Part shown: positions 4,646-37,227 of the stretch, piece by piece
Position numbering within the stretch: the stretch's first letter is position 1
Layout: every line of letters starts with the position of its first letter
Assembly (NCBI GenBank): GCA_964409245.1
Contig: CAYPCQ010000012.1
Location: 30,747 to 94,746, forward strand
Direction of reading: 5' to 3'
Length of the DNA: 64,000 nt
Source of the DNA: an uncultured Verrucomicrobiota bacterium
GTDB lineage: Bacteria; Verrucomicrobiota; Verrucomicrobiia; Limisphaerales; UBA1319
The notes under the pieces: generated by a model
The model's database searches: none
What the model was told of the DNA's origin: nothing
What the model saw: only the letters and a program-made list of their open reading frames with translations
Translations under genes and position numbers: made by a program

Positions 4646-5569
4646 TCACCGGCCGGCGGATTTCAAGGCCTCCATTTCCTCCGGGGCGGGCCGGCGGACG
4701 CACCGGAAGCCGCAGTAGTCGGTATAAAAACAGGCGTCCGTGTCGCCGGTGCGCTCGCCCTGGCGGTAGGTGGCGCGGCACATGTCGGCGCTGGCTTTCC
4801 ACGAGCCGCCGCGCATCACGCGCTTGACATCCCTGCCCTGGCCCGGCGGGCCGGTGGGATCGGCCGCGGGGCTTTCGGCGTAATAGGTGGGGCTGTAAAC
4901 GTCCTCGCACCATTCGGCCACGTTGCCATACAGGTCGTGGAACCCCCAGGCATTCGGCTTTTTCTGGCCGGCCAGGTGGGTCTTTTCGTCCGCGTTTTCT
5001 GCGAACCAGCCATGTTGCTTGAGCCTGGCCGCCGGGCCGAAATCGTAGGGGCCGTCCGTGCCCGCCCGGCAGGCGTATTCCCACTCCGCCTCGGTGGGCA
5101 GGCGGTAGCCGCTGGCGGCATAATTGCAGGCCCAGTCGGCGGTCTTTTCGTCGTAGCAGGGCTTGAGCCCCTCGAGCAGGGACCGCTCGTTGCAGTATTG
5201 CTTGGCGTCGCGCCAGCGCACCCGCTCCACCGGTTTTTTGGCCTGGTCGCCCCAGTGGGAGGGATTGGGCAGCTGCGCCTTGGCGAAGAGATCCTGGGTG
5301 ACCTCGTATTGGTCCATGAGGAAGGCGCTGATTTTGACCTTGTGCGCCGGGGCCTCATCCGGGTTGCCCCGGGCATTGCCCATCAGGAATTCCCCGCCGG
5401 GCACGAGGATCATGGCCACGCCGGATTTGGTGGCAACCTCCCGGGCGCCGCCGGCGGCGGACGGACGGCCGGGCGGCTCGGCGGGCGGCGTGCCGCTCCC
5501 CGGCTGCCCGCAGCCCGGCAGCAGCGCCACCGCGCCCGCCAGCCACAGGCCATGGATTTTTCCCCTCAT
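4646..5569 (-). CDS. Formylglycine-generating enzyme (SUMF1/FGE-sulfatase) family lipoprotein
   Basis: Lipobox LLPGC. FGE motifs RVRWRDAKQYC, RLPTEAEWEYACRAG, NAWGFHDLYGNVAEWCED, RVMRGGSW. Confidence 0.8.
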   Translation of the reverse strand: MRGKIHGLWLAGAVALLPGCGQPGSGTPPAEPPGRPSAAGGAREVATKSGVAMILVPGGEFLMGNARGNPDEAPAHKVKISAFLMDQYEVTQDLFAKAQLPNPSHWGDQAKKPVERVRWRDAKQYCNERSLLEGLKPCYDEKTADWACNYAASGYRLPTEAEWEYACRAGTDGPYDFGPAARLKQHGWFAENADEKTHLAGQKKPNAWGFHDLYGNVAEWCEDVYSPTYYAESPAADPTGPPGQGRDVKRVMRGGSWKASADMCRATYRQGERTGDTDACFYTDYCGFRCVRRPAPEEMEALKSAGR

Positions 5570-5572
5570 GGC

Positions 5573-6679
5573 CTACTCCCGGGCTCCCCGGCGCGGCCAG
5601 AACCACGCTGATTCCTTGTTGCTGAGTCCGTTGGTGGTCAAGGTGGCGTAATCCGCCTCGGTGGCCTGCTCCAGGTTCAGCGCCCCCTGGCGCTCCGCGG
5701 ACACCGCGATGAGGTTCCAGCCGGGCGCATAGATCCCCACCATCTCGCAGGCGCCGTGGAATGTGCCCGCGTGGCTGGGATCCCCCTCGCCGTCCGGCCC
5801 CCGGCTGAGGCTCAGGAAGCGGCTGTCCGGCGACCAATCCACATGGTAGATCTTGAGCTTCTTCTCCAGCACCCGCAGGTTCCATTTCCCCACCGCCGGC
5901 GTCTCCGCGTCCAGGCTGATCGGGGCGGTGGCGATCTCGAAATCCCCCGCGCCCCAGGCGATTTGTTTGCCATCCGGGCTCAGGCACGGGCGGCAGCCGG
6001 GGATGTTCAGGTTCAGGATCCGGCTGCCCCGGGCCTCGATCAGCAGGATCGCGTGGCCGAAGCCCATGCCGGCATGCACCGTGGCCACGATCCATTTGCC
6101 GTTCGGGGCAAACCCCGGGTTGTACAGGTGATGCAGCTTGGCGCTGTTCGGATGTTCCTCGATCCGCCCGGTGTCCAGGTGGCAGAAGCTCATGCCTTTG
6201 GTGTAATAATCCACCACGTTGAACTTGGGATATTCCTGCGGCAGGAAGCCGATCGTCTTTCCATCCGGCGCCCAAAATGGCTCGCGCGCGTGGTCCGCCA
6301 GTTTCCGCCGGTTCTTCCCCTCGAGATCCATCACCCACAGGCTGCGGACCGTTTCCCGCCCCGCCCCTTGATCCACCGAGTAGCAGATCGACCGGCCGTC
6401 CGGCGACACCTGGGGATAATGCTCGTGGACCCCCGGGGTTTGGGTCAGGTTCACGGGATTGGACCCATCGGCGTTCATCACGAAGATTTCCCAGTTGCCG
6501 TCCGCGTAACTTTCGCAGGCGATCTGATAGGGCAATTTCTTCAGCGCCTCCCGGAGGGGGGGCGGGGTTTGCGCCACGGCGCCGGCCACAGCCAGCAACA
6601 CCATGGCCGAGCATGCGATGCGCCCGGAAACGCGCTTCCAGCCATCGCCAATTATTCCCGACCTGACAGGCAGTTTCAT
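5573..6679 (-). CDS. TolB-like PD40 beta-propeller repeat protein (secreted)
   Basis: Repeated SPDG/APDG blades: SPDGRSICYS, APDGKTIGF, SPDGKQIAWG, SPDSRFLSLS. The likely start is the internal ATG at 6679 (MKLPVRSG..., followed by a signal-like helix), not the ORF-track start at 6847. Confidence 0.65.
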   Translation of the reverse strand: MKLPVRSGIIGDGWKRVSGRIACSAMVLLAVAGAVAQTPPPLREALKKLPYQIACESYADGNWEIFVMNADGSNPVNLTQTPGVHEHYPQVSPDGRSICYSVDQGAGRETVRSLWVMDLEGKNRRKLADHAREPFWAPDGKTIGFLPQEYPKFNVVDYYTKGMSFCHLDTGRIEEHPNSAKLHHLYNPGFAPNGKWIVATVHAGMGFGHAILLIEARGSRILNLNIPGCRPCLSPDGKQIAWGAGDFEIATAPISLDAETPAVGKWNLRVLEKKLKIYHVDWSPDSRFLSLSRGPDGEGDPSHAGTFHGACEMVGIYAPGWNLIAVSAERQGALNLEQATEADYATLTTNGLSNKESAWFWPRRGARE

Positions 6680-8157: not shown

Positions 8158-8390
8158 TGCTCGAAAACGTCCGCTTCCATGCTGGCGCGGAACTGTTCCG
8201 AAGTAAGCGGGAAATCGCGGCTGGTGAGGAACCGGCGCATGCCCGAACCTGATGGCGTTTCGCGTGCCGGCAGGCTGTTGTCCGGCTCCAGGATGGTCAG
8301 CAGGGCGCGGGCCTTGACCGGGAGCTTCACGTCCCCGTGCGGCCGGACTCGGCCGTGGTCCAGCTCAACTTCAACCGTGTTATAGTGCAT
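8154..8390 (-). CDS. vapB: Antitoxin of the VapBC-type pair
   Basis: 78-aa ORF whose stop overlaps the vapC start by 4 nt (ATGA). Its size and position upstream of the PIN gene are typical of a type II toxin-antitoxin pair. Confidence 0.55.
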   Translation of the reverse strand: MHYNTVEVELDHGRVRPHGDVKLPVKARALLTILEPDNSLPARETPSGSGMRRFLTSRDFPLTSEQFRASMEADVFEQ

Positions 8391-9085
8391 ATGGTTAGCT
8401 TACCATTTAGGACTGTATTGGCAAGGGGGACAAAGAGCGCCAGGCAAAGGCCAAGGGCTGAAGACCAAATGCTGGCTTATTGGATCCTTATTCGGGGCAG
8501 GCGCTGCGCGCCAACCCCGGGCTTGGTTGCGGAATCCCGCTGGGACTCACGGAGGGAAAAGGGAATGGCCACGAAAGAGCACAAAGGGCACAAAATCTCA
8601 AAGGGGGGCCGCCGCTGCGATGCGGTCCACGGAGAGTGCGCGAGCTTTTGGATTGCGTGCGCTGCTGCGCCGGTTTGCATTTTTCAGCTTGCAGTCCGCC
8701 CCCGTTTTTTATGCGTCCACGGCGCTTTTTTTTGCGGCAGATCTCCTGCTTGTCCCTGTTCAACTGGGCCATCTGCAACCTCGGCCAGAATCAATCTCAA
8801 ACGCCGCTCCGCGGCGCTGGGGCACGGAGATTTGAGACCGCAAAGGCAAGGCACCAAATGAAAAAGGGGATAAACGGATCCTAACAATGAAGCCGGACCG
8901 AAATTTTTTTTCAGGAACCGATCTCTGGGGCGACTCCACGGAATTCACCGGCGCTTTTTTTGCCTGAACATCCCCAATTCAGGATTAACGATAAAGGATC
9001 ACCCGCAAAAACCGGGTTTTGTCCCGTCTTTGTAACCGGCTTAATGCCAGTGGGTTAGCCCCTGTTTACTGGGGGGACTTACACG

Positions 9086-9892
9086 GTGGACGTGGGCAAT
9101 GTGGTGGGGTCGGTGGCCAGCGCCGGGGCGGTATTGAGCCTGAACACGCCGGTGGCGATCACCCAGCAACCGGCGAGCCAGACCGTGAATCCCGGTGCCA
9201 ATGTGACCTTCACGGTGGTGGCGACGGGAACCACTCCATTGACCTATCAATGGAAACTGAATGGCACGCCGATCACAGGGGCAACATCGGCCAGTTTGAC
9301 ACTCAACACTGCGGCCAGCGCCAGTACGGGAACTTACACGGTGGTGGTGGGCAATGTGGTGGGGTCGGTGGCCAGCGCTGGGGCGGTATTGAGCCTGAAC
9401 ACGCCGGTGACCATCACCCAGCAGCCGGTGAGCCAAGCCGCGTTTGCGGGGAGCAACGTAGTATTCAGTGTGACAGCGGTTGGAACACCACCCTTGCGTT
9501 TCCAGTGGCTTTATAATGGGACACCCATCGCCGGACAAACCAATGACGCCTTGAGCCTCGCGAATTTGAAAACCACCCAGGCGGGACAATATGCGGTGAC
9601 GGTAACCAGTTCAGCCGGAGCAGTAACCAGCGCGGCAGCCGTTTTGACGGTGGCTCCGCCGCCGACCCTGGCGGCCAGTTTGGTGAAGCGGCCGGAAGGC
9701 TCATTCATGCAATTGAAAGTGGCTGGGCTGCCGGGTTCGGCCTGCCGGATCCAATCCGCCTCCAGCCTCGGCGCGAGTGGCCAGTGGCAAACCAAGTCCA
9801 CGCTGGTTTTGGCCAATGGATCCCTGGATTGGCAGGATTCGGAGCCGCTGACGACAACCTATAGGTTTTATCGGATAGAATTGTCGAAGTGA
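9086..9892 (+). CDS. Ig-like (I-set/Big-type) repeat protein fragment, 5'-truncated
   Basis: Three roughly 85-aa Ig-like repeats (TQQPxSQ...F.V.A.GT.PL.YQW..NG.PI.GAT...L.L...). There is no signal peptide. The reading frame opens in the middle of a repeat (GTYTVDVGNVVGS). Repeat units at 9086-9160 and 9341-9415 are nearly identical at the DNA level. Confidence 0.55.
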   Translation: MDVGNVVGSVASAGAVLSLNTPVAITQQPASQTVNPGANVTFTVVATGTTPLTYQWKLNGTPITGATSASLTLNTAASASTGTYTVVVGNVVGSVASAGAVLSLNTPVTITQQPVSQAAFAGSNVVFSVTAVGTPPLRFQWLYNGTPIAGQTNDALSLANLKTTQAGQYAVTVTSSAGAVTSAAAVLTVAPPPTLAASLVKRPEGSFMQLKVAGLPGSACRIQSASSLGASGQWQTKSTLVLANGSLDWQDSEPLTTTYRFYRIELSK

Positions 9893-10141
9893 TCTTGGCC
9901 GGGGGGCAAGGTTTCCATAATATGCCATCCCACCCTCCTGCCCGCGGATTCCATCGCCTGGCGCAATAATCTGCGGCGCAGCCACTTCCATCCCACCTTC
10001 AGGAGCCTGGCGGAGGGAGTCCGGGCGTTTATTGAACACCGGCCGGCGTGAGCTGCGCCGGCCCTTGGCCTTTTAAGAATGTAGTTGGCAAAACGGTGAA
10101 ATCGCCCAATATTCACGATTTCGAGACGGTTTTGAGACGCT

Positions 10142-11974
10142 ATGGCGGAAAGCAAAAAGCACGTTTACGACGAGAGCAAGATCAAGACGCTCTCCTCGCT
10201 GGAGCACATCCGGCTGCGGACCGGCATGTACATCGGGCGCATCGGCAACGGGACGGATTACGATGATGGCTGTTACATCCTGCTGAAGGAGGTTCTGGAC
10301 AACGCGGTGGACGAATTCATCATGGGCCACGGCCGCGAGGTGCAAATCCAGATCCAAGGCAACCAGGTGAGCGTGCGGGATTTCGGCCGCGGGATCCCGC
10401 TGGGCAAGGTGGTGGACTGCGTATCCAAGATCAACACCGGGGCCAAATACAACGACGACGTCTTCCAGTTCAGCGTGGGGCTCAACGGCGTGGGCACGAA
10501 AGCGGTGAACGCGCTGTCCAAGGATTTCCTGGTGCGCAGCCACCGCGGGGGGGAATTCGTGGAAGCCGCCTTCAAAATCGGGCGGCTCAAGCAGCAAAAG
10601 GATGGCAAAAAGCCCGGCGAACCCGATGGCACATTCATCCAGTTCGAGCCGGATCCGACGATTTTCAAGGATTCCCATTTCCTGGAGGAGCACATTGAGC
10701 GGCGCCTGCGCCATTACGCCTACCTGAACTCGGGCCTGAAGCTGATCTTCAACGGCAAGGAATTCCAATCCCGCCTGGGCCTGCTGGACCTCGTCCTGGA
10801 GGATCTGGCGCGGGACCAGAGCGAGCCGATTTACTCGCCGCTGCATTACACCTCCAAGACGCTGGAGTTCTGCTTCACCCACACGAACAGCCGCTACGGC
10901 GAGACCTTTTTCTCCTTCGTCAACGGGCAATACACCTCGGACGGCGGCACGCACCTGAGCGCGTTCCGCGAGGGCCTGCTCAAGGCCATCAACGAATTCT
11001 CCCACGGCAAATACGAGGGCGACGACGTGCGCGAAAGCATGGTGGGCGCGGTGGCCATCCGCCTCAAGGATCCGGTGTTCGAATCCCAGACCAAGAACAA
11101 GCTGGGCAACACCGAGATCCGGTCCGACCTGGTCAACCAGGTGCGGGAAGAGCTGCTCCATTTCCTGAACCGCAACAAGGAGATCGCGGAAAAGATCCTC
11201 GCCAAAATCGAGGATACCCGCCAGCTGCGCAAAGAGCTGCAGGAGGTCAAAAAGCTCGCCCGGGAGCGGGCCAAGGCCATCACCATCCGCATTCCGCAGC
11301 TCAAGGATTGCAAGGTCCACTTCGACAAGAAAAAGGAAAAGGGGCACGGGAGCATGGTGTTCATCACGGAGGGCATGTCCGCCGCCGGGTCGATTGTCAG
11401 CTGCCGGGATGTGAACACCCAGGCGATCTTCACGCTCAAAGGCAAGCCGCTGAATGTGTGGGATCTCCACCGGGATGCCATCTATAAAAACGATGAGATG
11501 TATAATCTCATGCGCAGCCTGGACATCGAGGACACCCTGGAGAATCTCCGCTACGAAAAGGTGATCCTGGCCACCGATGCCGACGTGGACGGCCTCCATA
11601 TCCGGAACCTGATGATCACTTACTTTTTCCGGTTTTTCGACCAGCTGGTGCACGATGGCCACCTGTATGTCCTGGAGACGCCCCTGTTCCGCACCCGCAA
11701 CAAGGACAAAACCATCTATTGCTATTCCGAAACGGAGCGGGATGAGGCGGTGAAAACCCTGGGCAGGAATTTCGAGATCACCCGGTTCAAGGGCCTGGGC
11801 GAAATCTCCCCCCACGAATTCAAGCAGTTCATCGGCCCCCAGATGAAGCTGAGCCGGGTGGAATACGCCCCCAAGCAGGATACCCAGGTGATTTTATCGT
11901 TTTATATGGGCCGCAACACACCGGAGCGGAAGGATTACATCATGACCAACCTGATCGTCCCGGTCGAAGAGTGA
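10142..11974 (+). CDS. parE: Type IIA topoisomerase B subunit, short (topoisomerase IV ParE-like) form
   Basis: GHKL ATPase motifs (LEHIRLRTGMYIG, EVLDNAVDE, GLNGVG). Toprim motifs (FITEG, ATDADVDGLHI). The 610-aa length matches the short ParE form. Confidence 0.85.
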   Translation: MAESKKHVYDESKIKTLSSLEHIRLRTGMYIGRIGNGTDYDDGCYILLKEVLDNAVDEFIMGHGREVQIQIQGNQVSVRDFGRGIPLGKVVDCVSKINTGAKYNDDVFQFSVGLNGVGTKAVNALSKDFLVRSHRGGEFVEAAFKIGRLKQQKDGKKPGEPDGTFIQFEPDPTIFKDSHFLEEHIERRLRHYAYLNSGLKLIFNGKEFQSRLGLLDLVLEDLARDQSEPIYSPLHYTSKTLEFCFTHTNSRYGETFFSFVNGQYTSDGGTHLSAFREGLLKAINEFSHGKYEGDDVRESMVGAVAIRLKDPVFESQTKNKLGNTEIRSDLVNQVREELLHFLNRNKEIAEKILAKIEDTRQLRKELQEVKKLARERAKAITIRIPQLKDCKVHFDKKKEKGHGSMVFITEGMSAAGSIVSCRDVNTQAIFTLKGKPLNVWDLHRDAIYKNDEMYNLMRSLDIEDTLENLRYEKVILATDADVDGLHIRNLMITYFFRFFDQLVHDGHLYVLETPLFRTRNKDKTIYCYSETERDEAVKTLGRNFEITRFKGLGEISPHEFKQFIGPQMKLSRVEYAPKQDTQVILSFYMGRNTPERKDYIMTNLIVPVEE

Positions 11975-30623: not shown

Positions 30624-31670
30624 CTACCGTTTGTAAATGCCCGCCTGGCTGGTGAAGCCAGCGCTGGCCGCCGGGTTGCTGGTGGGAAAGAATTCCACCT
30701 TCAATTGGTTGTCCCCGGCCAGCTGCACCAGCAAGATGCCCACCGGCGTGGAAAACTCCCCAGCCTGGGGCGGATCTTGCGGCGGAGGGAGCAGGGGATA
30801 TTTCACCAGGCCGGCGCCCATCCCAACGCCCGCCGGATCCGGCGCGCCTGGCGGCACGGCATAAACCCCCGCGGGGGCCACCGTGCCGCCAATGGAAATC
30901 CGGACCGCTTTGGGCTGCCGCACATCGTAAACGAAGGCCAGGTGCCGGGCCCATACTCCCGGCTCTCCCCGCTGGCTTTCCTCCGGTGACAGGGTGTTAT
31001 GAAACCAGTTGCCGGCCAGTTTGCCAGGCTGGTCGAAGTCGATTTTCCCGTGTTTGTCCGCCCCCTCCCGGGCCACCTTGGCCAGCAGCTGGCTGCGCAA
31101 CGGTTCGGCAAAGAGCGCCAAAGGCGAAACCGTGTGGAGCGTGGAGGCTGGGTAGCGGGCGGGGTTGAGGAAGCCTTTCAGCTGGACCCGCGCATCGCAA
31201 GCGCCCAGGTCGAGCCAGGACCGGGCGGAAACCCGGCCAATGGCCTGGCCCGCCTTCACCCGGCTCCCGGTTCCGATCCCCGGCTCCACACGCAGATGCG
31301 CCAGGTAATAGCAGAGCTGATGATCCACGCGGATCTCCACTTTGGAATCCCCCTGGGATTGGTCCCGGATCGCGAATACGGTTCCCGCCGCCGGGGCAAA
31401 CACCAATAAATCCGGCTTGCCCCCGTAATCCAGATAGACGTGGTCGGTGGGAAGGACATGGCCACCGCGCGGATTCAAATTGCCCAGGGGCACGATGGCG
31501 CGGATCTCATCCAAGGCCAGGGGGGAGGCTGTGAAAGCGGTTGCAGCCGGGATAGGCCCGGATTCGGATGCGAGCAGCAGCGGCAGCGCCAGGCCCATGG
31601 CCGTCAGACCCGCGCAGCACCGCTGAAGCCGCCCGCCCCGGTATTGGCGACAGGCGATTCCACCGTTCAT
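30624..31670 (-). CDS. Secreted LytM/M23-like peptidase-fold protein
   Basis: HVLPTDHVYLDYG ... AGTVFAIRD ... YYLAHLRVEPGIGTGSRVKAGQAIGRVS follows the M23 beta-barrel pattern. Confidence 0.5.
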   Translation of the reverse strand: MNGGIACRQYRGGRLQRCCAGLTAMGLALPLLLASESGPIPAATAFTASPLALDEIRAIVPLGNLNPRGGHVLPTDHVYLDYGGKPDLLVFAPAAGTVFAIRDQSQGDSKVEIRVDHQLCYYLAHLRVEPGIGTGSRVKAGQAIGRVSARSWLDLGACDARVQLKGFLNPARYPASTLHTVSPLALFAEPLRSQLLAKVAREGADKHGKIDFDQPGKLAGNWFHNTLSPEESQRGEPGVWARHLAFVYDVRQPKAVRISIGGTVAPAGVYAVPPGAPDPAGVGMGAGLVKYPLLPPPQDPPQAGEFSTPVGILLVQLAGDNQLKVEFFPTSNPAASAGFTSQAGIYKR

Positions 31671-32146
31671 AAGACCCCATTCTTTTGCGGACTCAATGGC
31701 TGCAGTGCAGCTCTCTTTTTAAAAAAAGTAAAGCGGAGAATGCCCGATCCTGGCGCGAGGGGCGGCCAGGGAAAATCGCGATAGGTGGTTTATAGCCAGC
31801 TTTTTGGATGGCCTGGAGAGCCCCCTTGCATCAACTTATCCGGATGGATGTTTTTCATGGTTCACCCACTTTGACGTCAGGTATTTTTAATTATTTTGAA
31901 AAAATATCTTGCATCGGAATACATCCTGATTTAATTTAAAGGCGCATTCGATGAAAAACTGCATAAATATATCAAACGTGAGCAAGCCGGCGACGGCCGC
32001 GATAGCGGCCCGTAAGAGCCGGCCGGCCGCGGGTTGTTTGTCTGGCCCGGGACAAGCCCGGAGCTATGCAGGCCAAAAACCCACGAGCCGGTGGCATCGG
32101 CTGGAGGTGAGCAGGTAGGGGAATTGTCGAATTGGTATTTTCCCAA

Positions 32147-32178
32147 CCCTGCTGGCCGAAGAGGTAGCAGGGTTTTTT
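32147..32178 (+). terminator. Rho-independent terminator
   Basis: CCCTGCT / AGCAGGG stem (32147-32153 / 32166-32172) followed by T6 (32173-32178). Confidence 0.7.
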
Positions 32179-32480
32179 ATTGAACCAAACAGAACCAATT
32201 GTCCGCTGAAAAAAAGATCATGGAAAGTGAGCAACGACCAGGCGGCATCTAAATGATGTCATCCGGCACAAAATTGAAAATGGCAGAGGCGAACCGGGAT
32301 TGGCCACCTATGGGGTGTGTCCGGAGCACGCCAGCAGAGCTGCCAAGGCGAATTTCCCGAATTTTAAATTTGAAGGGCTGCGGAGGAGGTGTGCCCCAAA
32401 ACACCGAAACGACCACCGTGAAAAACCTGTGGCTACGGAACGACCGACCGTAACGGTGTATGTTCTTTTTTGAAATGGCC

Positions 32481-32522
32481 GGGGCCAGGAGCAGTTGGAA
32501 TACTCCTGGCCCCTTTGAATTT
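32481..32522 (+). terminator. Rho-independent terminator (11-bp perfect stem)
   Basis: GGGGCCAGGAG / CTCCTGGCCCC (32481-32491 / 32503-32513), then TTTGAATTT. Confidence 0.65.
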
Positions 32523-32524
32523 CC

Positions 32525-32596
32525 GCGGCTGTGGTTAAACAGCAGAATATTTCTGGCAGGGAGAGCGTCCGGGCGCGATGCCCGGCGGCCGCACCG
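32525..32596 (+). ncRNA. Degenerate tRNA-like unit (first unit of the array)
   Basis: Acceptor GCGGCTG / CGGCCGC. T-arm CCGGG-CGCGATG-CCCGG, then discriminator A. The anticodon stem is weak (possible GGC). D-loop AAACAGCAG. Confidence 0.3.
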
Positions 32597-32723
32597 ATTT
32601 AAGAAAACCGTTTGCCCCCCAAACTTTCAGGCGGTTTTCAGCTATCATACGCCGGGCGCCAGCGAGCGCAGCCTGGTCTCCAAAACCGGGCCGGTTTGGG
32701 GCAGCACCAAAACGGCGTGCCAT

Positions 32724-32798
32724 GGGGTCGTGGCAGACAAGCAATGCACCTGCCCTGCAAGCAGGTTGATGCGGGAGCGTTACCCGCCGGCTCCACCA
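32724..32798 (+). tRNA. tRNA-Ala(TGC)-like, non-canonical elbow, C33
   Basis: Acceptor GGGGTCG / CGGCTCC with G3:U70. Perfect anticodon stem CCTGC/GCAGG with loop CCTGCAA. T-arm GCGGG-AGCGTTA-CCCGC. ACCA end encoded. D-loop lacks GG. Confidence 0.55.
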
Positions 32799-32804
32799 TT
32801 TCAC

Positions 32805-32877
32805 TGCGGGGAGAATGAGATTCAGGCGAGCCTCATAAACTCAGCCTCCGTGGGCGCAACTCCCACCCCCGCTGCCA
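32805..32877 (+). ncRNA. Degenerate tRNA-like unit with CTCATAA (CAT) loop
   Basis: T-arm GTGGG-CGCAACT-CCCAC. 6-bp acceptor GCGGGG/CCCCGC with a T1:T72 mismatch. G-CCA end. D-arm and anticodon stem are poor. Confidence 0.3.
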
Positions 32878-32882
32878 ATCTG

Positions 32883-32968
32883 GGGAGGTGTTCCGGCTGC
32901 CGGCCGGTAAAACCGGTGTCGCTAACAAGGGCCGGAAGTGACGACTGGAGCATTACCAGCACCTCCCA
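32883..32968 (+). ncRNA. tRNA-like unit of class-II length (86 nt)
   Basis: Perfect acceptor GGGAGGT / ACCTCCC. T-arm CTGG-AGCATTA-CCAG. The internal CCGG-rich arms are ambiguous. No CCA. Confidence 0.3.
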
Positions 32969-32975
32969 CTTTATT

Positions 32976-33047
32976 GGATCCGCAGCCCCATCAGCGGGCC
33001 AACCCGTTGCCTGCGGGAAGGCCGGGGTGTGAGCCCCTTCGGATCCA
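32976..33047 (+). ncRNA. tRNA-like unit, possible Gly(GCC)
   Basis: Perfect acceptor GGATCCG / CGGATCC. D-arm GCCC-CATCAGC-GGGC. Anticodon hairpin CCCG-TTGCCTG-CGGG. The T-arm is irregular (GGGG-TGTGAG-CCCC plus 2 nt). Confidence 0.35.
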
Positions 33048-33056
33048 ACACTTTAT

Positions 33057-33132
33057 CGGAGCGTAGCTCAGTCTTCAGAGCACCCGGCTTGGGCCCGGGA
33101 GGCCGCAGGTGAAAATCCTGCCGTTCCGACCA
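33057..33132 (+). tRNA. tRNA-Pro(TGG), non-canonical elbow
   Basis: Full cloverleaf: CGGAGCG-TA-GCTC-AGTCTTCA-GAGC-A-CCCGG-CTTGGGC-CCGGG-AGGCC-GCAGG-TGAAAAT-CCTGC-CGTTCCG-A-CCA. C1:G72 and A73 are Pro-type identity marks. The T-loop lacks T55C56 and the D-loop lacks GG. Confidence 0.7.
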
Positions 33133-33140
33133 TTTGACAG

Positions 33141-33216
33141 GCTGCCGTGGCCGAACAGATGGGGCATTCGCCTCCGAAGCGAATCGATGCGGGTGCGATT
33201 CCCGCCGGCAGCTCCA
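33141..33216 (+). tRNA. tRNA-Arg(CCG), non-canonical elbow
   Basis: Acceptor GCTGCCG/CGGCAGC is perfect. Anticodon arm TTCGC-CTCCGAA-GCGAA. T-arm GCGGG-TGCGATT-CCCGC. T-CCA end. D-loop AACAGATG. Confidence 0.7.
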
Positions 33217-33228
33217 AGCCCGTTCCGC

Positions 33229-33305
33229 GCTCCCAAGGTGTAAGCAGACTGCACACCTCCCTGCGAAGGAGGAAGCTCGTGGTGCAAATCCATGTGGGAG
33301 CGCCA
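33229..33305 (+). tRNA. tRNA-Arg(GCG), non-canonical elbow and rare anticodon
   Basis: Acceptor GCTCCCA/TGGGAGC is perfect. D-arm GTGT-AAGCAGACT-GCAC. Anticodon arm CCTCC-CTGCGAA-GGAGG. T-arm CGTGG-TGCAAAT-CCATG. G-CCA end. Confidence 0.7.
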
Positions 33306-33312
33306 GCTTCAT

Positions 33313-33387
33313 GGTGATCCTGATGTAACAGCAGCATCACGCCCTGTGAAGGCGTTTGTGCCGGTGCGAATCCGGTTGATCACCCCA
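33313..33387 (+). tRNA. tRNA-His(GTG) with encoded G-1, non-canonical elbow
   Basis: G-1 plus GTGATCC / TGATCAC, with discriminator C (G-1:C73 is the His identity mark). Anticodon arm ACGCC-CTGTGAA-GGCGT. T-arm GCCGG-TGCGAAT-CCGGT. CCA encoded. Confidence 0.7.
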
Positions 33388-33609
33388 TTGGCAGTGCGCC
33401 AACGCTTTTTGTCCGGGCCTGGTGGCCTGGACGGTTCAAGGACGTCCTGCCAGTGGCGCGATTCGGGAGCAACCCGGGCGGGCGGGCCGCGCGGCAGCAG
33501 TCTCTTAAACCGCGGAGCACGGGGCAATTCATCATTCAGCTGCTGAGGCTGGACATTTCCGGCCGCATTTTGCGATTCAAAAACAATCCATATTAAAAAG
33601 GAGGTAATC

Positions 33610-35403
33610 ATGAGCCAACGAACGCCAGCGGAAGCGCGCCGCATCGCGGAAGCCCTTGGCCCGGCCGAAAAGCTGGTCCAGTTGATTGTCAACTTCCCCG
33701 ATCATCTGTGGCACAACCGCCCGGGAGTAGTGCGCAACGGCAAATGGAAGGCCGCCACGCGCCAGGAGATCCAGGAGCACAAGCTGTCCGGCCGCCTGGG
33801 CAACGGAGAATTCCAGCCGGCCGGCCCGAATCCGGAAGCCATCGAGCAGGTATACCTCACCCTGGCCGAAATCTGGGAGGCCAACAACGAACTCGCCGCC
33901 CGCCTGGCATCCTACGTGATGAAAGAAACGGATTGGCGCGATATGAAGGTGGTTTGCGCTGCCTTCATGCTGGTGCAGAGCCGGGCCGGCCAGCCAGTCA
34001 CGGAGAAACAAAACGGCAGGCAGGCCGTGCTGTTCCACGACGACGATTATCGCGCCATCGGCGAGGCGATGATCAAGCTGTATGAGCGCGGGTCCAACCG
34101 CATGATGAACCCCAAGCTCATCCAGCGCATCGGTGAGGTGCTCAGCCTGCCTGCCATCGCGGCGATCAACGGCATGCTCGGCTTCGGCAATCCGCACAAG
34201 CGCAAGCCATTCATCGGGCGGTATTACCACGCCGTGACGGATTGGCTGGAATTCCGGGAAACCAACCTTTTGCTCCTGGAAGGCCTGCGGAAGTCGGGGT
34301 ATGCGAGGACGGTCCAGGGCCTCGCGCGCATGGCCGGCTACAAGCCCCAGTCCAAGCGCTTTTTCGAGGTGCTGGGCTGGAAGCAAAAGCAGGCCGCCGC
34401 CGGGCACCGCTCCATCGGGCTGACGGACCTTGAGATCCGCAAGTTCACGTTCGCGGGCCTCTCTGAACAGGAGATCTGCGAAAAGATCGTGGCCGATAAG
34501 CCCGGCTGGAAGCAGGTCATGGGCTTGCTGCCTCCAAAAATCGGCCTTACTCCGGCCATCCTGGTCGCCTTGCTGGACCAGATGTCGGACAAGGATCTGA
34601 CGATCCTGACGCCGACGCTGGAAGAGCTTGGGCTGTTGCAGCATGAGCCGGTCAAGCAACGCTGGCAGGAGGCGATCCGGAAGCAGGAAGACCAGCGCGC
34701 CCGCAACATCGCGAAAAACCTCCGTGACCGCGGCCTTGCCGGCCAGCTGGACGCTTCGGCGGATGCCGCCGTTGCCCAGGCGGTGGCGGAGGCCACGCAG
34801 GAAGCCGGCCTCCACATCATGTTCATCATCGATGCGAGCGGCTCGATGCAGGGGGCCATTGAAGCCTCGAAAGAGGCGCTGGCGATGATCGTGCAGGGGT
34901 TTCCGCCGGAGAAGCTGCACATTGCCAGCTTCAACACCATGGGCACCCTGTTGAAGCCCCGGCATCATTCAGCGGCCGGGGTGCGGAACATGCTGCGGGG
35001 CATCAAGGCCAGCGGCGGCACGATCCATGGCGCCGGGGTGCGGGTGTTCCATGACCAGGGCGTATGCATCCCGGAAGGCGCCAGCCTGATCTTGTTCGCG
35101 GTGGGTGATGAGCTGGGTGAGCCGGGAAGCCAGTTCGCGAAAAACCTGAAGGATTGGGGCTATGTGCCAAGCGCCATCGCGCATATTGTGAACGTGGGAT
35201 CCGAATATGGCCGGGGCACGACCCTGAGGAGTGCCGCGGAGATTCTCGGGGTGCCCTACACCGAGGTGAAGGTGGAGCAGCTTACGGATGTTTACCAGGT
35301 GCAGCGCACCCTCAAAGCCGTGCTCGAGGCGCAGCCCTTCCATGAGAAATGCTCGATCATCGAGAAAATCATGCAGACTGAATTATTGGTCCCGCCTTAT
35401 TAA
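33610..35403 (+). CDS. rsr: Ro60-like protein: helical TROVE-like N-terminal region + C-terminal vWA domain with MIDAS
   Basis: Strong SD AGGAGG 7 nt upstream of the ATG. The C-terminal vWA domain has MIDAS residues in Ro60 order: LHIMFIIDASGSMQG, SGGTIHG, LILFAVGDELG. The roughly 400-aa alpha-helical-repeat N-terminal part is laid out like the Ro60 TROVE ring. A Y-RNA-like element lies directly downstream. Confidence 0.6.
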   Translation: MSQRTPAEARRIAEALGPAEKLVQLIVNFPDHLWHNRPGVVRNGKWKAATRQEIQEHKLSGRLGNGEFQPAGPNPEAIEQVYLTLAEIWEANNELAARLASYVMKETDWRDMKVVCAAFMLVQSRAGQPVTEKQNGRQAVLFHDDDYRAIGEAMIKLYERGSNRMMNPKLIQRIGEVLSLPAIAAINGMLGFGNPHKRKPFIGRYYHAVTDWLEFRETNLLLLEGLRKSGYARTVQGLARMAGYKPQSKRFFEVLGWKQKQAAAGHRSIGLTDLEIRKFTFAGLSEQEICEKIVADKPGWKQVMGLLPPKIGLTPAILVALLDQMSDKDLTILTPTLEELGLLQHEPVKQRWQEAIRKQEDQRARNIAKNLRDRGLAGQLDASADAAVAQAVAEATQEAGLHIMFIIDASGSMQGAIEASKEALAMIVQGFPPEKLHIASFNTMGTLLKPRHHSAAGVRNMLRGIKASGGTIHGAGVRVFHDQGVCIPEGASLILFAVGDELGEPGSQFAKNLKDWGYVPSAIAHIVNVGSEYGRGTTLRSAAEILGVPYTEVKVEQLTDVYQVQRTLKAVLEAQPFHEKCSIIEKIMQTELLVPPY

Positions 35404-35410
35404 AGGCACA

Positions 35411-35435
35411 CCCGGGTGGAGCAGATCCACCCGGG
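35411..35435 (+). terminator. Perfect 10-bp hairpin immediately after the rsr stop (terminator or small structured RNA)
   Basis: CCCGGGTGGA-GCAGA-TCCACCCGGG. Only a weak T tract follows (GAATTTTG). Confidence 0.4.
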
Positions 35436-35455
35436 CACTTGAATTTTGACAATTT

Positions 35456-35586
35456 ACACCACGCAATCGGCCGGAAGTCACAAGCAAGCTCAATGGTAGA
35501 GCATCTGTTCCAGGAACAGACGGTAGCCGGTTCAATTCCGGCGCTAATCCAAAAACTTCTGCCCACTCGCGTGGTGTTCCCTTTTT
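35456..35586 (+). ncRNA. Y-RNA / YrlA-like ncRNA: long bulged closing helix + tRNA-like D-arm/T-arm module
   Basis: The two ends pair over about 22 positions. 35456-35464 ACACCACGC pairs with 35569-35577 GCGTGGTGT, and 35469-35478 pairs with 35555-35563, with bulged C at 35471 and 35568. The helix encloses GCTC-AATGGTA-GAGC (canonical D-arm with GG) and GCCGG-TTCAATT-CCGGC (canonical T-arm). The 'anticodon arm' is a 7-bp palindrome with a 3-nt loop (TCTGTTC-CAG-GAACAGA). The acceptor stem is degenerate. The helix is followed by CCCTTTTTG. Confidence 0.5.
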
Positions 35587-35642
35587 GAAATGCCAACGTT
35601 ACTTCCCACCCGCGGAAGGCAACCCATCAACCATCACCACCC

Positions 35643-36467
35643 ATGGACTATACGCCGTTCCTGCAAAAACCAGATGAATGGCTGCGGCTCCCTTATTTCG
35701 AGGGCAAATCTGTCTGCAGCGACCGCCAGGGCTACCGCCTCCGGGAAACCCTGCAACCCGGCTGGTATCAATTCCGGAAATCGGGCCGCTACCTGGAAGC
35801 CGGGCGCCGGATCGAGCCGGAGCCGGACGCCTGGAAACTGCCGCGCGTGGGCGGCTACGAGATGGACGGCCGCCTCTTTGGCAACGACTCGCAGGCGCGC
35901 CTGTTCGGTTTGCCCACGGAAATGGACCTGCCGAAGTTCACGCCGATTTCCGCGCGCAAATGGTTCGATGGACACCTGTTGTTCCACGGCCAGGAGTTCG
36001 AGACCGGGGTGGAAGCGCAGGTCCGGGAAGCGTTCGAGGAGGAGCATTCCATTGATGCCATCAAAGGCGTGACCCCGGCGCTGGCGCAGGTATTTGTCCT
36101 GGAGCATGCCCGGCGCGAGCTGGCCCGCGAGGCGGAACGGCGCGCCCGCGAAGAAGCCGCGCGGCAGCAGCAGCAGGCCGAGCTGGCGCGCTGGCAGGAA
36201 ACCCTGGAAGGCCGCCTCAGCCTGGCCTTGTCCCACACTGGGGCGGAGCTGGTCAGCTGGCGCCGCAACGGCGCGCGCCAGGCCGTGGTCCGCTACCGCA
36301 TTGCCCGGAGGCGCTTTGAATGCATCATCGACAGCGAATCCCTGCAAATCCTGGATGCCGGCATCTGCCTGGAGGGCGCCGACGAAGCATTGAACTTGTC
36401 CAGCCTGCCCTCCGCTGTGCGCGAGGCGGCTGACTCCGGGCGATTACATGTTTTTCGGCCAGCCTGA
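35643..36467 (+). CDS. Unknown protein: N-terminal globular domain + Arg/Glu/Gln-rich coiled coil + small C-terminal domain
   Basis: 274-aa ORF with coding periodicity. Central LAREAERRAREEAARQQQQAELARWQETLE. I recognise no family motif and no HPN-Cys E2 signature. It is the first gene of a tightly spaced operon with the JAB, Ubl and E1 genes. Confidence 0.5.
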   Translation: MDYTPFLQKPDEWLRLPYFEGKSVCSDRQGYRLRETLQPGWYQFRKSGRYLEAGRRIEPEPDAWKLPRVGGYEMDGRLFGNDSQARLFGLPTEMDLPKFTPISARKWFDGHLLFHGQEFETGVEAQVREAFEEEHSIDAIKGVTPALAQVFVLEHARRELAREAERRAREEAARQQQQAELARWQETLEGRLSLALSHTGAELVSWRRNGARQAVVRYRIARRRFECIIDSESLQILDAGICLEGADEALNLSSLPSAVREAADSGRLHVFRPA

Positions 36468-36482
36468 GCCGGCCTCATCCCT

Positions 36483-36953
36483 ATGCGCGAAGTCTGTTTA
36501 ATCCTGGCCGGAGACAAAATCATCCGGGCGTATTTTGGGTCGCAAACCAAAATCCCCGACACGCCGGAACGCTGGGAAATCATCTGGGAGCACCGGCAGG
36601 AGATCACCGAAATCGCCCATTCCCACCCGGGCAATTTGCTGGAGTTCTCTCCCGAGGATCTCACCACGATGGAGGCCATCGAAGCCGGCGCCGGGAAGGA
36701 ATTCACCTGGTCCATCGTCACCCAGGCCGGATTCCGGTCCCGCCAGGGCGGGCGGGATATCCGGCGGTCCGGTTCGCCGTGGTGGGTGGGCCTGCTGCGC
36801 CACCTTTCTTATGCGTGTTCAGGCCATGGGGAGGGAAGTAATTGCGCCGCCGATTTTTCGCCAGCCGCGAAGGGAGTCGTGAGTCCCGATCCGATTGGGC
36901 CCCATGACGAAGGGCTTATGGCGGACCGCAGTCCAATAAAACAATCCGATTGA
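36483..36953 (+). CDS. Minimal JAMM/JAB (MPN+) metallopeptidase
   Basis: Exact JAMM motif AHSHPGNLLEFSPEDL (HxH-x7-S-xx-D), with an upstream Glu (EIIWEH...). Lies 15 nt after the preceding gene. Confidence 0.7.
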   Translation: MREVCLILAGDKIIRAYFGSQTKIPDTPERWEIIWEHRQEITEIAHSHPGNLLEFSPEDLTTMEAIEAGAGKEFTWSIVTQAGFRSRQGGRDIRRSGSPWWVGLLRHLSYACSGHGEGSNCAADFSPAAKGVVSPDPIGPHDEGLMADRSPIKQSD

Positions 36954-36969
36954 GAAAGGAAAAAATGAA

Positions 36970-37218
36970 ATGAACGAAAATAATGTATTGATCAACATCA
37001 CCTGGCAGGGCCAGAGCGGCAATTACGTGGTCCGGCTGGATCCGGGCGTGGACGATGCCACCATCCGCAACCTCTGCGAGGAAGCCGTGCGCTCGGGCGA
37101 AGTGCCGGGCATCCGGCCGAACATCCCGAAGCACGCCTTTGCCAACTTCGTGATCGACCGGTTCCACGGCGGCCAGGCGCGTTTTGTGGTGCGGCCGAAG
37201 GTGCCCTTCGGCGTTTAA
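36970..37218 (+). CDS. Ubiquitin-like (beta-grasp) small protein ending ...VPFG-V
   Basis: 82 aa. The predicted beta-beta-alpha-...-beta pattern (VLINITW / YVVRLD / DATIRNLCEEAVR / RFVVRPKV) fits a beta-grasp fold. A penultimate Gly is followed by a single residue. The gene lies between the JAB and E1 genes. Confidence 0.5.
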   Translation: MNENNVLINITWQGQSGNYVVRLDPGVDDATIRNLCEEAVRSGEVPGIRPNIPKHAFANFVIDRFHGGQARFVVRPKVPFGV

Positions 37219-37227
37219 CTGAAAGCC

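Follow-up and report, generated by a model that had tools for sequence, protein, structure and literature searches.

To our knowledge, the biology of bacterial Ro60 proteins and their Y RNAs is known from few species, and the binding partner of the tRNA-like module of these RNAs is still unclear. Among the RNAs described together with Ro60/Rsr (YrlA, YrlB and Yrn1), YrlA bears a 5′ GNCGAAN0-1G motif in the Ro-binding stem (Chen et al. 2014, PMC4201824) and a circularly permuted tRNA-like domain, composed of a T arm, a capped acceptor stem and a D arm with no anticodon loop, where the Ro-binding stem continues from the anticodon stem (PMC4201824; Wang et al. 2018, bioRxiv 10.1101/312249). In addition, ROT/TROVE proteins have been noted in some jumbo phages (Iyer et al. 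2021, PMC7824862), and bacterial cassettes combining E1, E2, JAB and ubiquitin-like (Ubl) proteins were described by Iyer et al. 2006 (PMC1779556). The locus compared here with these systems lies in a stretch of 64,000 nucleotides, hereafter the window, from an uncultured Verrucomicrobiota bacterium (contig CAYPCQ010000012.1 of assembly GCA_964409245.1, positions 30,747 to 94,746 of the forward strand). In this locus, a gene for a 597-aa protein with a vWA domain is followed by a structured RNA with a tRNA-like module, by a gene here called p274 and by JAB, candidate Ubl and E1-like genes, with a tRNA array upstream. An earlier reading of the same letters, the original prediction, had seen in it a Ro60-like protein with an adjacent YrlA-like RNA.

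For the comparison, 76 genome loci encoding relatives of the protein were fetched, and 70 further loci came from a metagenome scan with the RNA 5′ motif alone. As seen by tblastn, the order vWA-p274-JAB-Ubl-E1 is kept in most of the 76 loci, across phyla, so that the vWA gene heads a conserved operon that the original prediction had missed. The JAB/Ubl/E1 genes and the tRNA array, which it had noticed at the flanks and taken for an unusual context, are indeed present, but they are conserved partners of the vWA gene across loci, and this is our main result. The best explanation, to which we give a probability of roughly 55%, is that the protein and the downstream RNA form a ribonucleoprotein (RNP) of the Ro60/Y RNA type that diverged beyond sequence recognition, being the first module of the vWA-p274-JAB-Ubl-E1 operon and tied to Ubl conjugation and tRNA biology. 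What is new here is a large RNA family not in Rfam and the unannotated front end of a five-gene Ubl-tagging operon; no description of the gene combination, the RNA family or the protein family was found in the searchable literature.

The RNA, of the kind named type A below, was delimited with Rfam, RNAfold, alignments and the covariance model R1, and is composed of the following parts:

35455 to 35586, + strand: the whole platform and tRNA-like RNA, type A
35456-35464 with 35569-35577, + strand: P1, the outer closing helix
35465-35468 opposite 35565-35568, + strand: conserved internal loop AAUC/ACUC
35469-35478 with 35555-35564, + strand: P2
35479-35485, + strand: conserved CACAAGC
35488-35502, + strand: D arm
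35505-35519, + strand: anticodon-like hairpin of 7 bp with a 3-nt loop
35526-35542, + strand: T arm
35582-35586, + strand: U-tract TTTTT, after the helix

From the stop codon of the vWA gene, whose last letter is 35403, it is 53 nt to the start of the RNA at 35455/35456, as had been proposed from the letters. The closing helix, the D and T arms and the hairpin, likewise proposed, were confirmed by RNAfold and Rfam, and the U-tract is read in the sequence. The predicted fold contains the closing helix, the D arm, the 7-bp/3-nt hairpin and the T arm at -49.8 kcal/mol (z = -3.0), and the Rfam tRNA model, whose gathering score is 29, gives 41.5 bits over 35479-35550. While the canonical elbow of D and T loops is retained, this RNA does not have the makings of a functional tRNA: three of the seven acceptor pairs are broken, leaving three contiguous pairs (the vestigial acceptor stem foreseen earlier), there is no CCA, the anticodon loop has 3 nt and ARAGORN does not call it as a tRNA. 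Regarding the irregularities of the long helix, the single bulged cytidines first described are instead the conserved 4x4 internal loop (AAUC/ACUC) and a variable 2x2 mismatch.

This RNA belongs to a family of which 186 complete elements, 156 of them unique, were collected, and for which Rfam 15 returned only tRNA matches, the family as such being missing from it. In Verrucomicrobia, the platform has the 5′ strand ACGCAAUCGGnnGGAAGUYACAAGC and the 3′ strand ACUUCnnnCCACUCGCGU. Among 153 unique platforms, the outer-helix positions are paired in 97-100% with CG/UA/GC/AU swaps, and almost no variation is seen in the 4x4 internal loop AAUC/ACUC or in the single-stranded ACAAGC. When 23 type A copies are aligned with MAFFT, compensatory change is seen at 22 of 36 pairs, with 89.5% of the cells paired; the value observed is reached by none of 500 shuffles, and slid partners pair in 35-45% only. 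The RNA architecture is thus beyond chance, and the covariation of the closing helix in homologous loci, whose absence had been named beforehand as a reason to give up the proposal, is there. The covariance model R1 was built from this 23-copy alignment; the window copy scores 130.6 bits with R1, a model built from these copies, and R1 also retrieves, at 62-77 bits, full-length copies from loci where the vWA proteins share only about 40% identity. In distant clades the sequence of the inner helix is also replaced in a compensatory way (31 of 36 pairs, in a model-fitted alignment), and the copies from Myxococcota and Actinobacteria carry the variant motifs YACACGC ... UCACUCGG.

The platform is combined with different modules. 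Type A, the kind found in the window, has 64 copies with a D arm, an anticodon-like arm and a T arm; type C, with 59 copies, has a T arm, a capped 7-bp acceptor-like hairpin, a D arm and an anticodon-like arm, which is a circular permutation with the platform at the variable-arm position; and type B, with 32 copies, has a short hairpin and no tRNA part. In three other loci (L048, L051 and L054), a tRNA that is otherwise complete, and whose acceptor ends are free, bears the platform at the variable-arm position as a capped hairpin. There are thus at least three topologies in which platform and tRNA shape are joined, a natural experiment indicating that tRNA shape, not connectivity, is under selection. 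In Verrucomicrobial loci, one to five tandem copies stand between the vWA gene and the next gene. As a separate observation, one platform at 9989-10138 of locus L008 surrounds a tRNA-like sequence that is nearly complete, having an acceptor-type stem and a CCA, together with an extra hairpin; it looks like a stage between tRNA genes and type A elements. When IMG/VR was scanned for the exact platform pattern, zero matches resulted.

A different explanation would make the elements pseudo-tRNAs or precursors, odd members of the neighbouring tRNA arrays or their relics, in which the platform signals processing (by RNase III or RNase P, for instance) and no protein is a dedicated partner. It draws on the tRNA arrays that lie nearby, on the almost complete tRNA with CCA inside the L008 platform, on the otherwise complete tRNAs of L048, L051 and L054 and on the anticodons that ARAGORN assigns in type A copies (Leu-aag in L002, Met-cat in L004, Ser-tga in L007 and Ile-tat in L056). 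However, the window copy keeps a 3-bp acceptor remnant with no CCA and a 3-nt "anticodon" loop, and the length and sequence of the anticodon loop drift freely between orthologous copies. Moreover, type B copies lack any tRNA part, the internal loop and ACAAGC are conserved in sequence and not merely in pairing, and array-free loci, such as those of Corallococcus, still carry the RNA beside the vWA gene; taken together, this makes the relic explanation improbable.

Compared with the described Y RNAs, the family is alike in several respects. The RNAs are of modular build, a terminal stem being joined to an effector module; there are several RNA genes per locus near the protein gene and on its strand, and one RNA class is tRNA-like with conserved D and T arms, another being a simple hairpin (PMC4201824). 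The window RNA has the long stem formed by its 5′ and 3′ ends and the conserved D and T arms that are used to recognize YrlA, and it lies 53 nt downstream of the Ro60-like gene on the same strand, which would fall inside the distance of about 4 kb from a Ro60 gene used for YrlA if this gene, not a demonstrable Ro60 orthologue, were taken as the reference. Furthermore, the permuted order of YrlA is seen in the sister type C and Myxococcal copies, which run from T arm to acceptor to D arm and match the Rfam YrlA model at 27-40 bits; these matches are not decisive, because the YrlA model also matches the junctions of adjacent tRNAs at similar scores. The window RNA itself, however, is not permuted, having the order D, anticodon, T; its stem replaces the acceptor stem and not the anticodon stem, the anticodon-like hairpin is kept, and its stem motif is the AAUC/ACUC loop with YACAAGC instead of GNCGAA. 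It has no match to Rfam YrlA (RF02553, gathering score 69 bits) at E <= 10. The match to the published YrlA architecture that had been claimed for it consequently fails: judging from these sequence features, it resembles a Y RNA in modularity, location and copy number, yet it is not a YrlA member.

The association between RNA and gene was also seen from the side of the RNA. Among the 70 metagenome loci fetched by motif, a vWA match lies just upstream in 39 and a p274 match just downstream in 42, on the same strand; complete elements lack such neighbours only where the contig measures 1.3-1.8 kb. Wherever a contig is long enough for neighbours to be seen, complete copies thus adjoin the vWA gene, on its strand, in Verrucomicrobia, Myxococcota and Actinobacteria alike. 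Long "orphan" contigs, considered as gene-free RNA loci, were rejected, as they held only chance matches to the 5′ motif, often inside long open reading frames (ORFs). With a generalised descriptor, 63 copies were found on the operon strand of the 76 genome loci versus 2 on the opposite strand. The position is variable between clades: the RNA is downstream of the vWA gene in Verrucomicrobia and 31-320 nt upstream of its start in Myxococcota and Actinobacteria, with about 115 nt in the complete genomes of Corallococcus coralloides and C. exercitus, and some copies (L058, L060, L066 and L073) lie 3′ of the whole operon. An absence of the RNA from Myxococcal loci was considered and rejected, since R1, direct reading and a looser descriptor found copies that strict patterns had missed.

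Two observations concern what lies between the copies. In the Verrucomicrobial locus L003, positions 5127-5857, inserted between platform RNA copies, encode an antitoxin resembling Phd/YefM (E 0.005) and a VapC-like toxin with a PIN domain (E 3e-10); VapC-type toxins are tRNA nucleases. In L007, an Acido-Lenti-1 RNA (RF01687) scores 40.8 bits (gathering score 37) at 8198-8243, between two platform copies.

The placement of the RNA ahead of a gene also bears on another explanation, in which it is a cis-acting leader or attenuator, the closing helix and U-tract being an intrinsic terminator that a tRNA-binding factor or an operon protein modulates, thereby setting downstream expression. The window element lies 57 nt upstream of the p274 start, the Myxococcota and Actinobacteria copies lie at the distances from the vWA start given above, and most copies have a U-tract after P1, all of which would suit a leader. 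A leader would hardly come in up to five tandem copies per locus with differing modules, though, or stand downstream of the entire operon as in the four loci just named; in addition, a terminator would not need the degree of conservation seen in the platform sequence and in the nucleotides of the tRNA elbow, and a generic terminator scan made no call because the helix is interrupted. We give this attenuator explanation little credit. Between the vWA stop and the RNA, a further structure was read from the sequence:

35411 to 35435, + strand: 10-bp GC-rich hairpin, then a U-rich stretch

It resembles a terminator or a processing site, and analogous hairpins follow the vWA stop codon in L001-L004. 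A TTGACA hexamer is located at 35447-35452, between this hairpin and the RNA, and a scan for sigma-70-type promoters over 31600-38400 gave zero sites.

Upstream of the vWA gene, the window holds a set of tRNA genes:

32724 to 33387, + strand: five-tRNA array (Ala-tgc, Pro-tgg, Arg-ccg, Arg-gcg, His-gtg), called by ARAGORN, Rfam tRNA scores of 41-61 bits

The CCA is encoded in all five genes. Their T-loops are non-canonical throughout, as in GGUGCGAAUCC, where G replaces U55, and the GG of the D-loop is missing in four. Canonical T-loops are likewise found in 0 of 6 array tRNAs in L005 and 0 of 12 in L006, while the distant loci L019 and L050 and the phage Rctr197k have canonical array tRNAs. 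Because the array tRNAs of the window keep CCA without a canonical elbow and the mimic RNA keeps the canonical elbow, the two carry complementary halves of tRNA identity. Arrays of 5-21 tRNA genes on the same strand lie upstream of the vWA gene in Verrucomicrobial and several distant loci. Around the window array, the preceding ~1 kb (31700-32700) has a low GC content (0.50-0.57), no convincing ORF and no RNA-family match above threshold, the sole hit being OmrA-B at 31765-31858, whose 23.6 bits fall short of the gathering score of 40, and the 260-nt gap from tRNA-Ala to tRNA-Pro (32799-33056) is without assigned content.

The jumbo phage Rctr197k (KX853510, locus L147), with 197 kb, is the sole GenBank phage that encodes a vWA homologue, annotated there merely as a misc_feature. 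A 33-tRNA array lies directly upstream of it, a p274 homologue follows, and JAB, Ubl and ThiF homologues are found a few kilobases further downstream, so that all five genes are present. The p274 homologue is unannotated (8977-9873, + strand, tblastn E 9e-19) and overlaps an opposite-strand coding sequence at 9403-9855. An R1 match of 50.8 bits in this phage was rejected as a platform RNA, being an ordinary tRNA-Ala with poorly matching flanks. The locus shares with the tRNA arrays of jumbo phages and mobile elements the large same-strand array directly upstream of the gene, and with Ro60/Y RNA systems an occurrence in large phages rich in tRNA genes. It differs in that the protein falls outside the annotated ROT/TROVE family of jumbo phages (PMC7824862) and in that the array tRNAs of the window's clade have non-canonical elbows.

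Regarding the protein, its gene is organised as follows:

33610-35403, + strand: ORF of the vWA protein, 597 aa
33610 to 34794, + strand: N-terminal domain of ~395 aa, helical repeats with inserted beta-hairpins, remotely similar to the Ro60/TROVE fold
34795 to 35403, + strand: C-terminal vWA domain with a full metal ion-dependent adhesion site (MIDAS) motif, Pfam VWA_2
34831-34845, 35020-35022 and 35107-35109, + strand: MIDAS codons of D408-x-S410-x-S412, T471 and D500, respectively

The helical N-terminal region and the C-terminal vWA domain with its MIDAS in Ro60 order, as originally proposed, stand: the first 395 residues are largely helical in AlphaFold 2 (AF2) models, and Pfam VWA_2 matches residues 403-480 (E 2.5e-6), the other Pfam matches being generic only (VWA_3, CoxE and VWA_4). 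None of D408, S410, S412, T471 and D500 varies among 28 homologues, and they hardly vary in an alignment of 43 sequences that reaches down to 22% identity. The domain order, a helical-repeat domain followed by vWA with a DxSxS...T...D MIDAS, matches that of Ro60 (PMC4201824; bioRxiv 10.1101/312249). More than 1,300 database entries belong to the family, at present under no other label than "VWA domain-containing" or hypothetical, and an exhaustive profile search of 1.8 billion representatives gave 516 relatives; phmmer with the 597-aa protein gave zero matches among PDB sequences, and PHROGs, NCBIfam and PADLOC gave nothing informative for the vWA protein, p274 or the Ubl.

The full-length AF2 model has a predicted local distance difference test score (pLDDT) of 74 and a predicted template modelling score (pTM) of 0.45, too uncertain for judging ring closure; its best full-length PDB matches are TROVE/Ro60 entries, with template modelling (TM) scores of 0.22-0.40. 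Residues 1-398 modelled alone with a deeper alignment reached pLDDT 87.8 and pTM 0.80, and when this N-terminal model was compared with 350,000 PDB chains by Foldseek, the top three matches were Ro60 chains with probabilities of 0.97-0.99 (E 0.01-0.06, TM 0.33-0.36), the next match having a probability of 0.30, so that Ro60 chains are the sole PDB matches above 0.5 for this domain. In BFVD, a Gordonia phage contributes the top match, a Ro-like RNA-binding protein (probability 1.00), and the second match is unnamed (probability 1.00, TM 0.43). Profile comparison by hhalign, made against an alignment of ten Ro60/Rsr/phage Ro proteins, gave P = 0.002 and a score of 32.3 for the N-terminal domain versus TROVE, and P = 1.6e-7 for the vWA domain versus the Ro60 vWA, the latter being read as vWA homology and not as membership in the Ro60 vWA subfamily. 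Full-length against full-length, a single colinear alignment of 282 columns runs through both domains (P = 7e-10). The 597-aa protein therefore has the architecture of Ro60 and probably a divergent TROVE-like fold, but it is not a demonstrable member of the Ro60 family. Of the TROVE similarity announced earlier, the remote fold match and the weak colinear profile match hold, while the similarity in sequence profiles does not.

Several results weigh against an RNP of the Ro60/Y RNA type. In Pfam, the 597-aa protein has no match to TROVE (PF05731) at E <= 1 and none to vWA_Ro60 (PF25045), in which it differs from Ro60/Rsr; as a positive control, Bxz1 gp220, a genuine phage Ro-like protein, matches TROVE at E 9.4e-50 and vWA_Ro60 at E 4.3e-54 and retrieves human, Xenopus and Deinococcus Ro60 from PDB at about 1e-99. 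The TROVE domain is also absent from ten distant full-length relatives of the exhaustive-search set, and the family profile run against PDB sequences recovered only vWA domains, not Ro60. The fold matches have low TM scores (0.22-0.43, all below 0.5), with E values of only 0.007-0.06 for the N-terminal domain, and the hhalign score of the N-terminal domain is barely above 29.4, the best of 30 block-shuffled controls. On the RNA side, the Ro60-binding motifs GNCGAAN0-1G and GGUCCGA occur in 0 of 156 unique elements, and with the R1 model a convincing platform RNA was not found at the Rctr197k locus. Finally, the results fit the vWA protein or p274 as the RNA-binding partner alike, and what links the RNP to Ubl conjugation is synteny only.

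Much of this would also be expected if the RNA were a genuine partner of the operon but the 597-aa protein were a generic vWA scaffold unrelated to Ro60, with the RNA bound by p274 or a host factor and the likeness to Ro60/Y RNA being convergent. No sequence-level TROVE signal, low TM scores and no Ro-binding motif agree with such a scaffold, and so does the Verrucomicrobial RNA between vWA and p274, equally adjacent to both. On the other hand, Ro60 is the top N-terminal match in two independent structure libraries, where other helical-repeat proteins have probabilities of 0.41 at most; the profile alignment is colinear through both domains; and in Myxococcota and Actinobacteria the RNA is immediately upstream of the vWA gene, with p274 on the far side. 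We consider the scaffold explanation unlikely, more plausible nevertheless than either the relic or the attenuator one, and prefer the diverged Ro60/Y RNA-type RNP. The sequences themselves show the RNA structure with its conservation and covariation, its exclusive placement next to the vWA gene, the operon synteny, the MIDAS, the intact JAB and E1 motifs and the C-terminal Gly of the candidate Ubl. We infer that the vWA protein, rather than p274, is the RNA binder, and TROVE homology and every later functional step are proposed in the same conditional sense.

According to the preferred reading of a diverged Ro60/Y RNA-type RNP, the protein would bind the conserved platform, that is, the AAUC/ACUC internal loop, the flanking helices and the single-stranded YACAAGC, and this contact would be made by the helical N-terminal domain, as in Ro60 with the Y RNA stem. 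The tRNA-shaped module, with a canonical elbow and no usable acceptor end or anticodon, may act as a handle or decoy for a protein that recognizes tRNA shape. The candidate Ubl, with a C-terminal Gly, would be trimmed by JAB and adenylated by E1, and then attached to, or signal through, a component of the RNP, the MIDAS of the vWA domain being a candidate docking point. Because the module is repeatedly linked to tRNA arrays, including that of the jumbo phage, it is suggested that it might serve to monitor, regulate or protect a supplementary pool of tRNAs, plausibly in conflicts where nucleases target tRNA.

The remaining genes of the operon in the window are the following:

35643 to 36467, + strand: p274, conserved protein of unassigned fold, with an invariant Cys242 in a D-A-G-I-C-L motif
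36483 to 36953, + strand: putative JAB/JAMM peptidase with an intact HxHx7SxxD motif (HSHPGNLLEFSPED), from the translation
36970 to 37218, + strand: candidate Ubl of 82 aa, with a conserved C-terminus RPK[V/T]PFG and a tail of 0-4 aa, assigned also by synteny
37228 to 37800, + strand: ThiF/E1-like adenylating enzyme of 190 aa, with the nucleotide-binding loop GGGALG

The p274 gene always follows the vWA gene and its product has no Pfam, NCBIfam, PADLOC or PDB match. Its "GICL" motif had suggested an E2, which was rejected, as hhalign against four eukaryotic E2s aligns 6 columns only, and with Pfam, NCBIfam, PADLOC and, for p274, hhalign, a recognisable E2 was not found among the operon proteins. 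JAB matches Pfam Prok-JAB at E 8e-4 with 19.7 bits, below the 25-bit cut-off, and the PADLOC JAB model at E 0.011. The candidate Ubl is without a Pfam match; its C-terminus is conserved in an alignment of 24 homologues, the window copy ending in PFG-V, and would fit the pattern of a Ubl trimmed to its terminal Gly. The E1-like enzyme matches Pfam ThiF (E 2.6e-21), the NCBIfam ThiF/MoeB models and the PADLOC E1-E2 models (E 1e-9).

Bil and CBASS Cap2/Cap3 are related bacterial ubiquitin-like conjugation systems. With the bacterial E1/E2/JAB/Ubl cassettes (Iyer et al. 2006, PMC1779556), the operon shares a ThiF-type E1, a putative JAMM/JAB peptidase whose active-site motif is intact, and a small protein whose C-terminal Gly often precedes a few residues that could be removed. 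The differences from Ubl-conjugation operons are that no E2 is recognisable here, as the conserved Cys of p274 comes with no E2 profile match; that no PADLOC defence model matched except weakly those for E1 and JAB; that the E1, with 190 aa, is minimal; and that the cassette is headed by a Ro60-like vWA protein and structured RNAs, an arrangement not found in the literature searched. A second comparison is offered by the sulfur-carrier systems TtuB/TtuC, Urm1/Uba4 and SAMP/UbaA, where an adenylase of the E1 kind is combined with a JAMM protease and with a Ubl that has a C-terminal Gly, in connection with tRNA. The operon has an E1-like enzyme, putative counterparts of the other two components and the tRNA link of these tRNA thiolation systems, but it is without a PP-loop thiolase of the TtuA/Ncs6 type, and p274 has no such domain.

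Taken across its range, the locus might be one member of a wide unrecognised system of Verrucomicrobia, Myxococcota, Actinobacteria, Leptospira-like bacteria and a jumbo phage, in which a Ro60-like RNP with tRNA-mimic RNAs in three circularly permuted topologies on one protein-binding platform would serve as sensor or decoy for tRNA-directed attack, its signal being coupled to Ubl conjugation and protecting or regulating a supplementary tRNA pool. We put this forward tentatively and with more doubt than belief. If it were true, it would be the first functional link of Ro/Y-type RNPs to Ubl tagging in prokaryotes. In any case, the protein family may extend the Ro60 lineage past the reach of sequence profiles, and the fixed link to JAB/Ubl/E1 and the recurrent one to tRNA arrays make the role of a tRNA-mimic Y RNA genetically testable in culturable Corallococcus strains.

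As to the surroundings, the island of about 31.4-38.8 kb in the window has a lower GC content than its flanks; GH38 and M23 peptidase genes border it at one end, FKBP and PilT-like genes at the other. These are the neighbours found in place of RtcB/RtcA, whose absence had been stated correctly; the locus differs in this from Ro60/Y RNA loci, its immediate partners being JAB/Ubl/E1 and p274. In a Myxococcaceae genome (L014), a group II intron lies directly downstream of the operon at 10052-10668 on the - strand (RF02001, 97 bits; RF00029, 42 bits).

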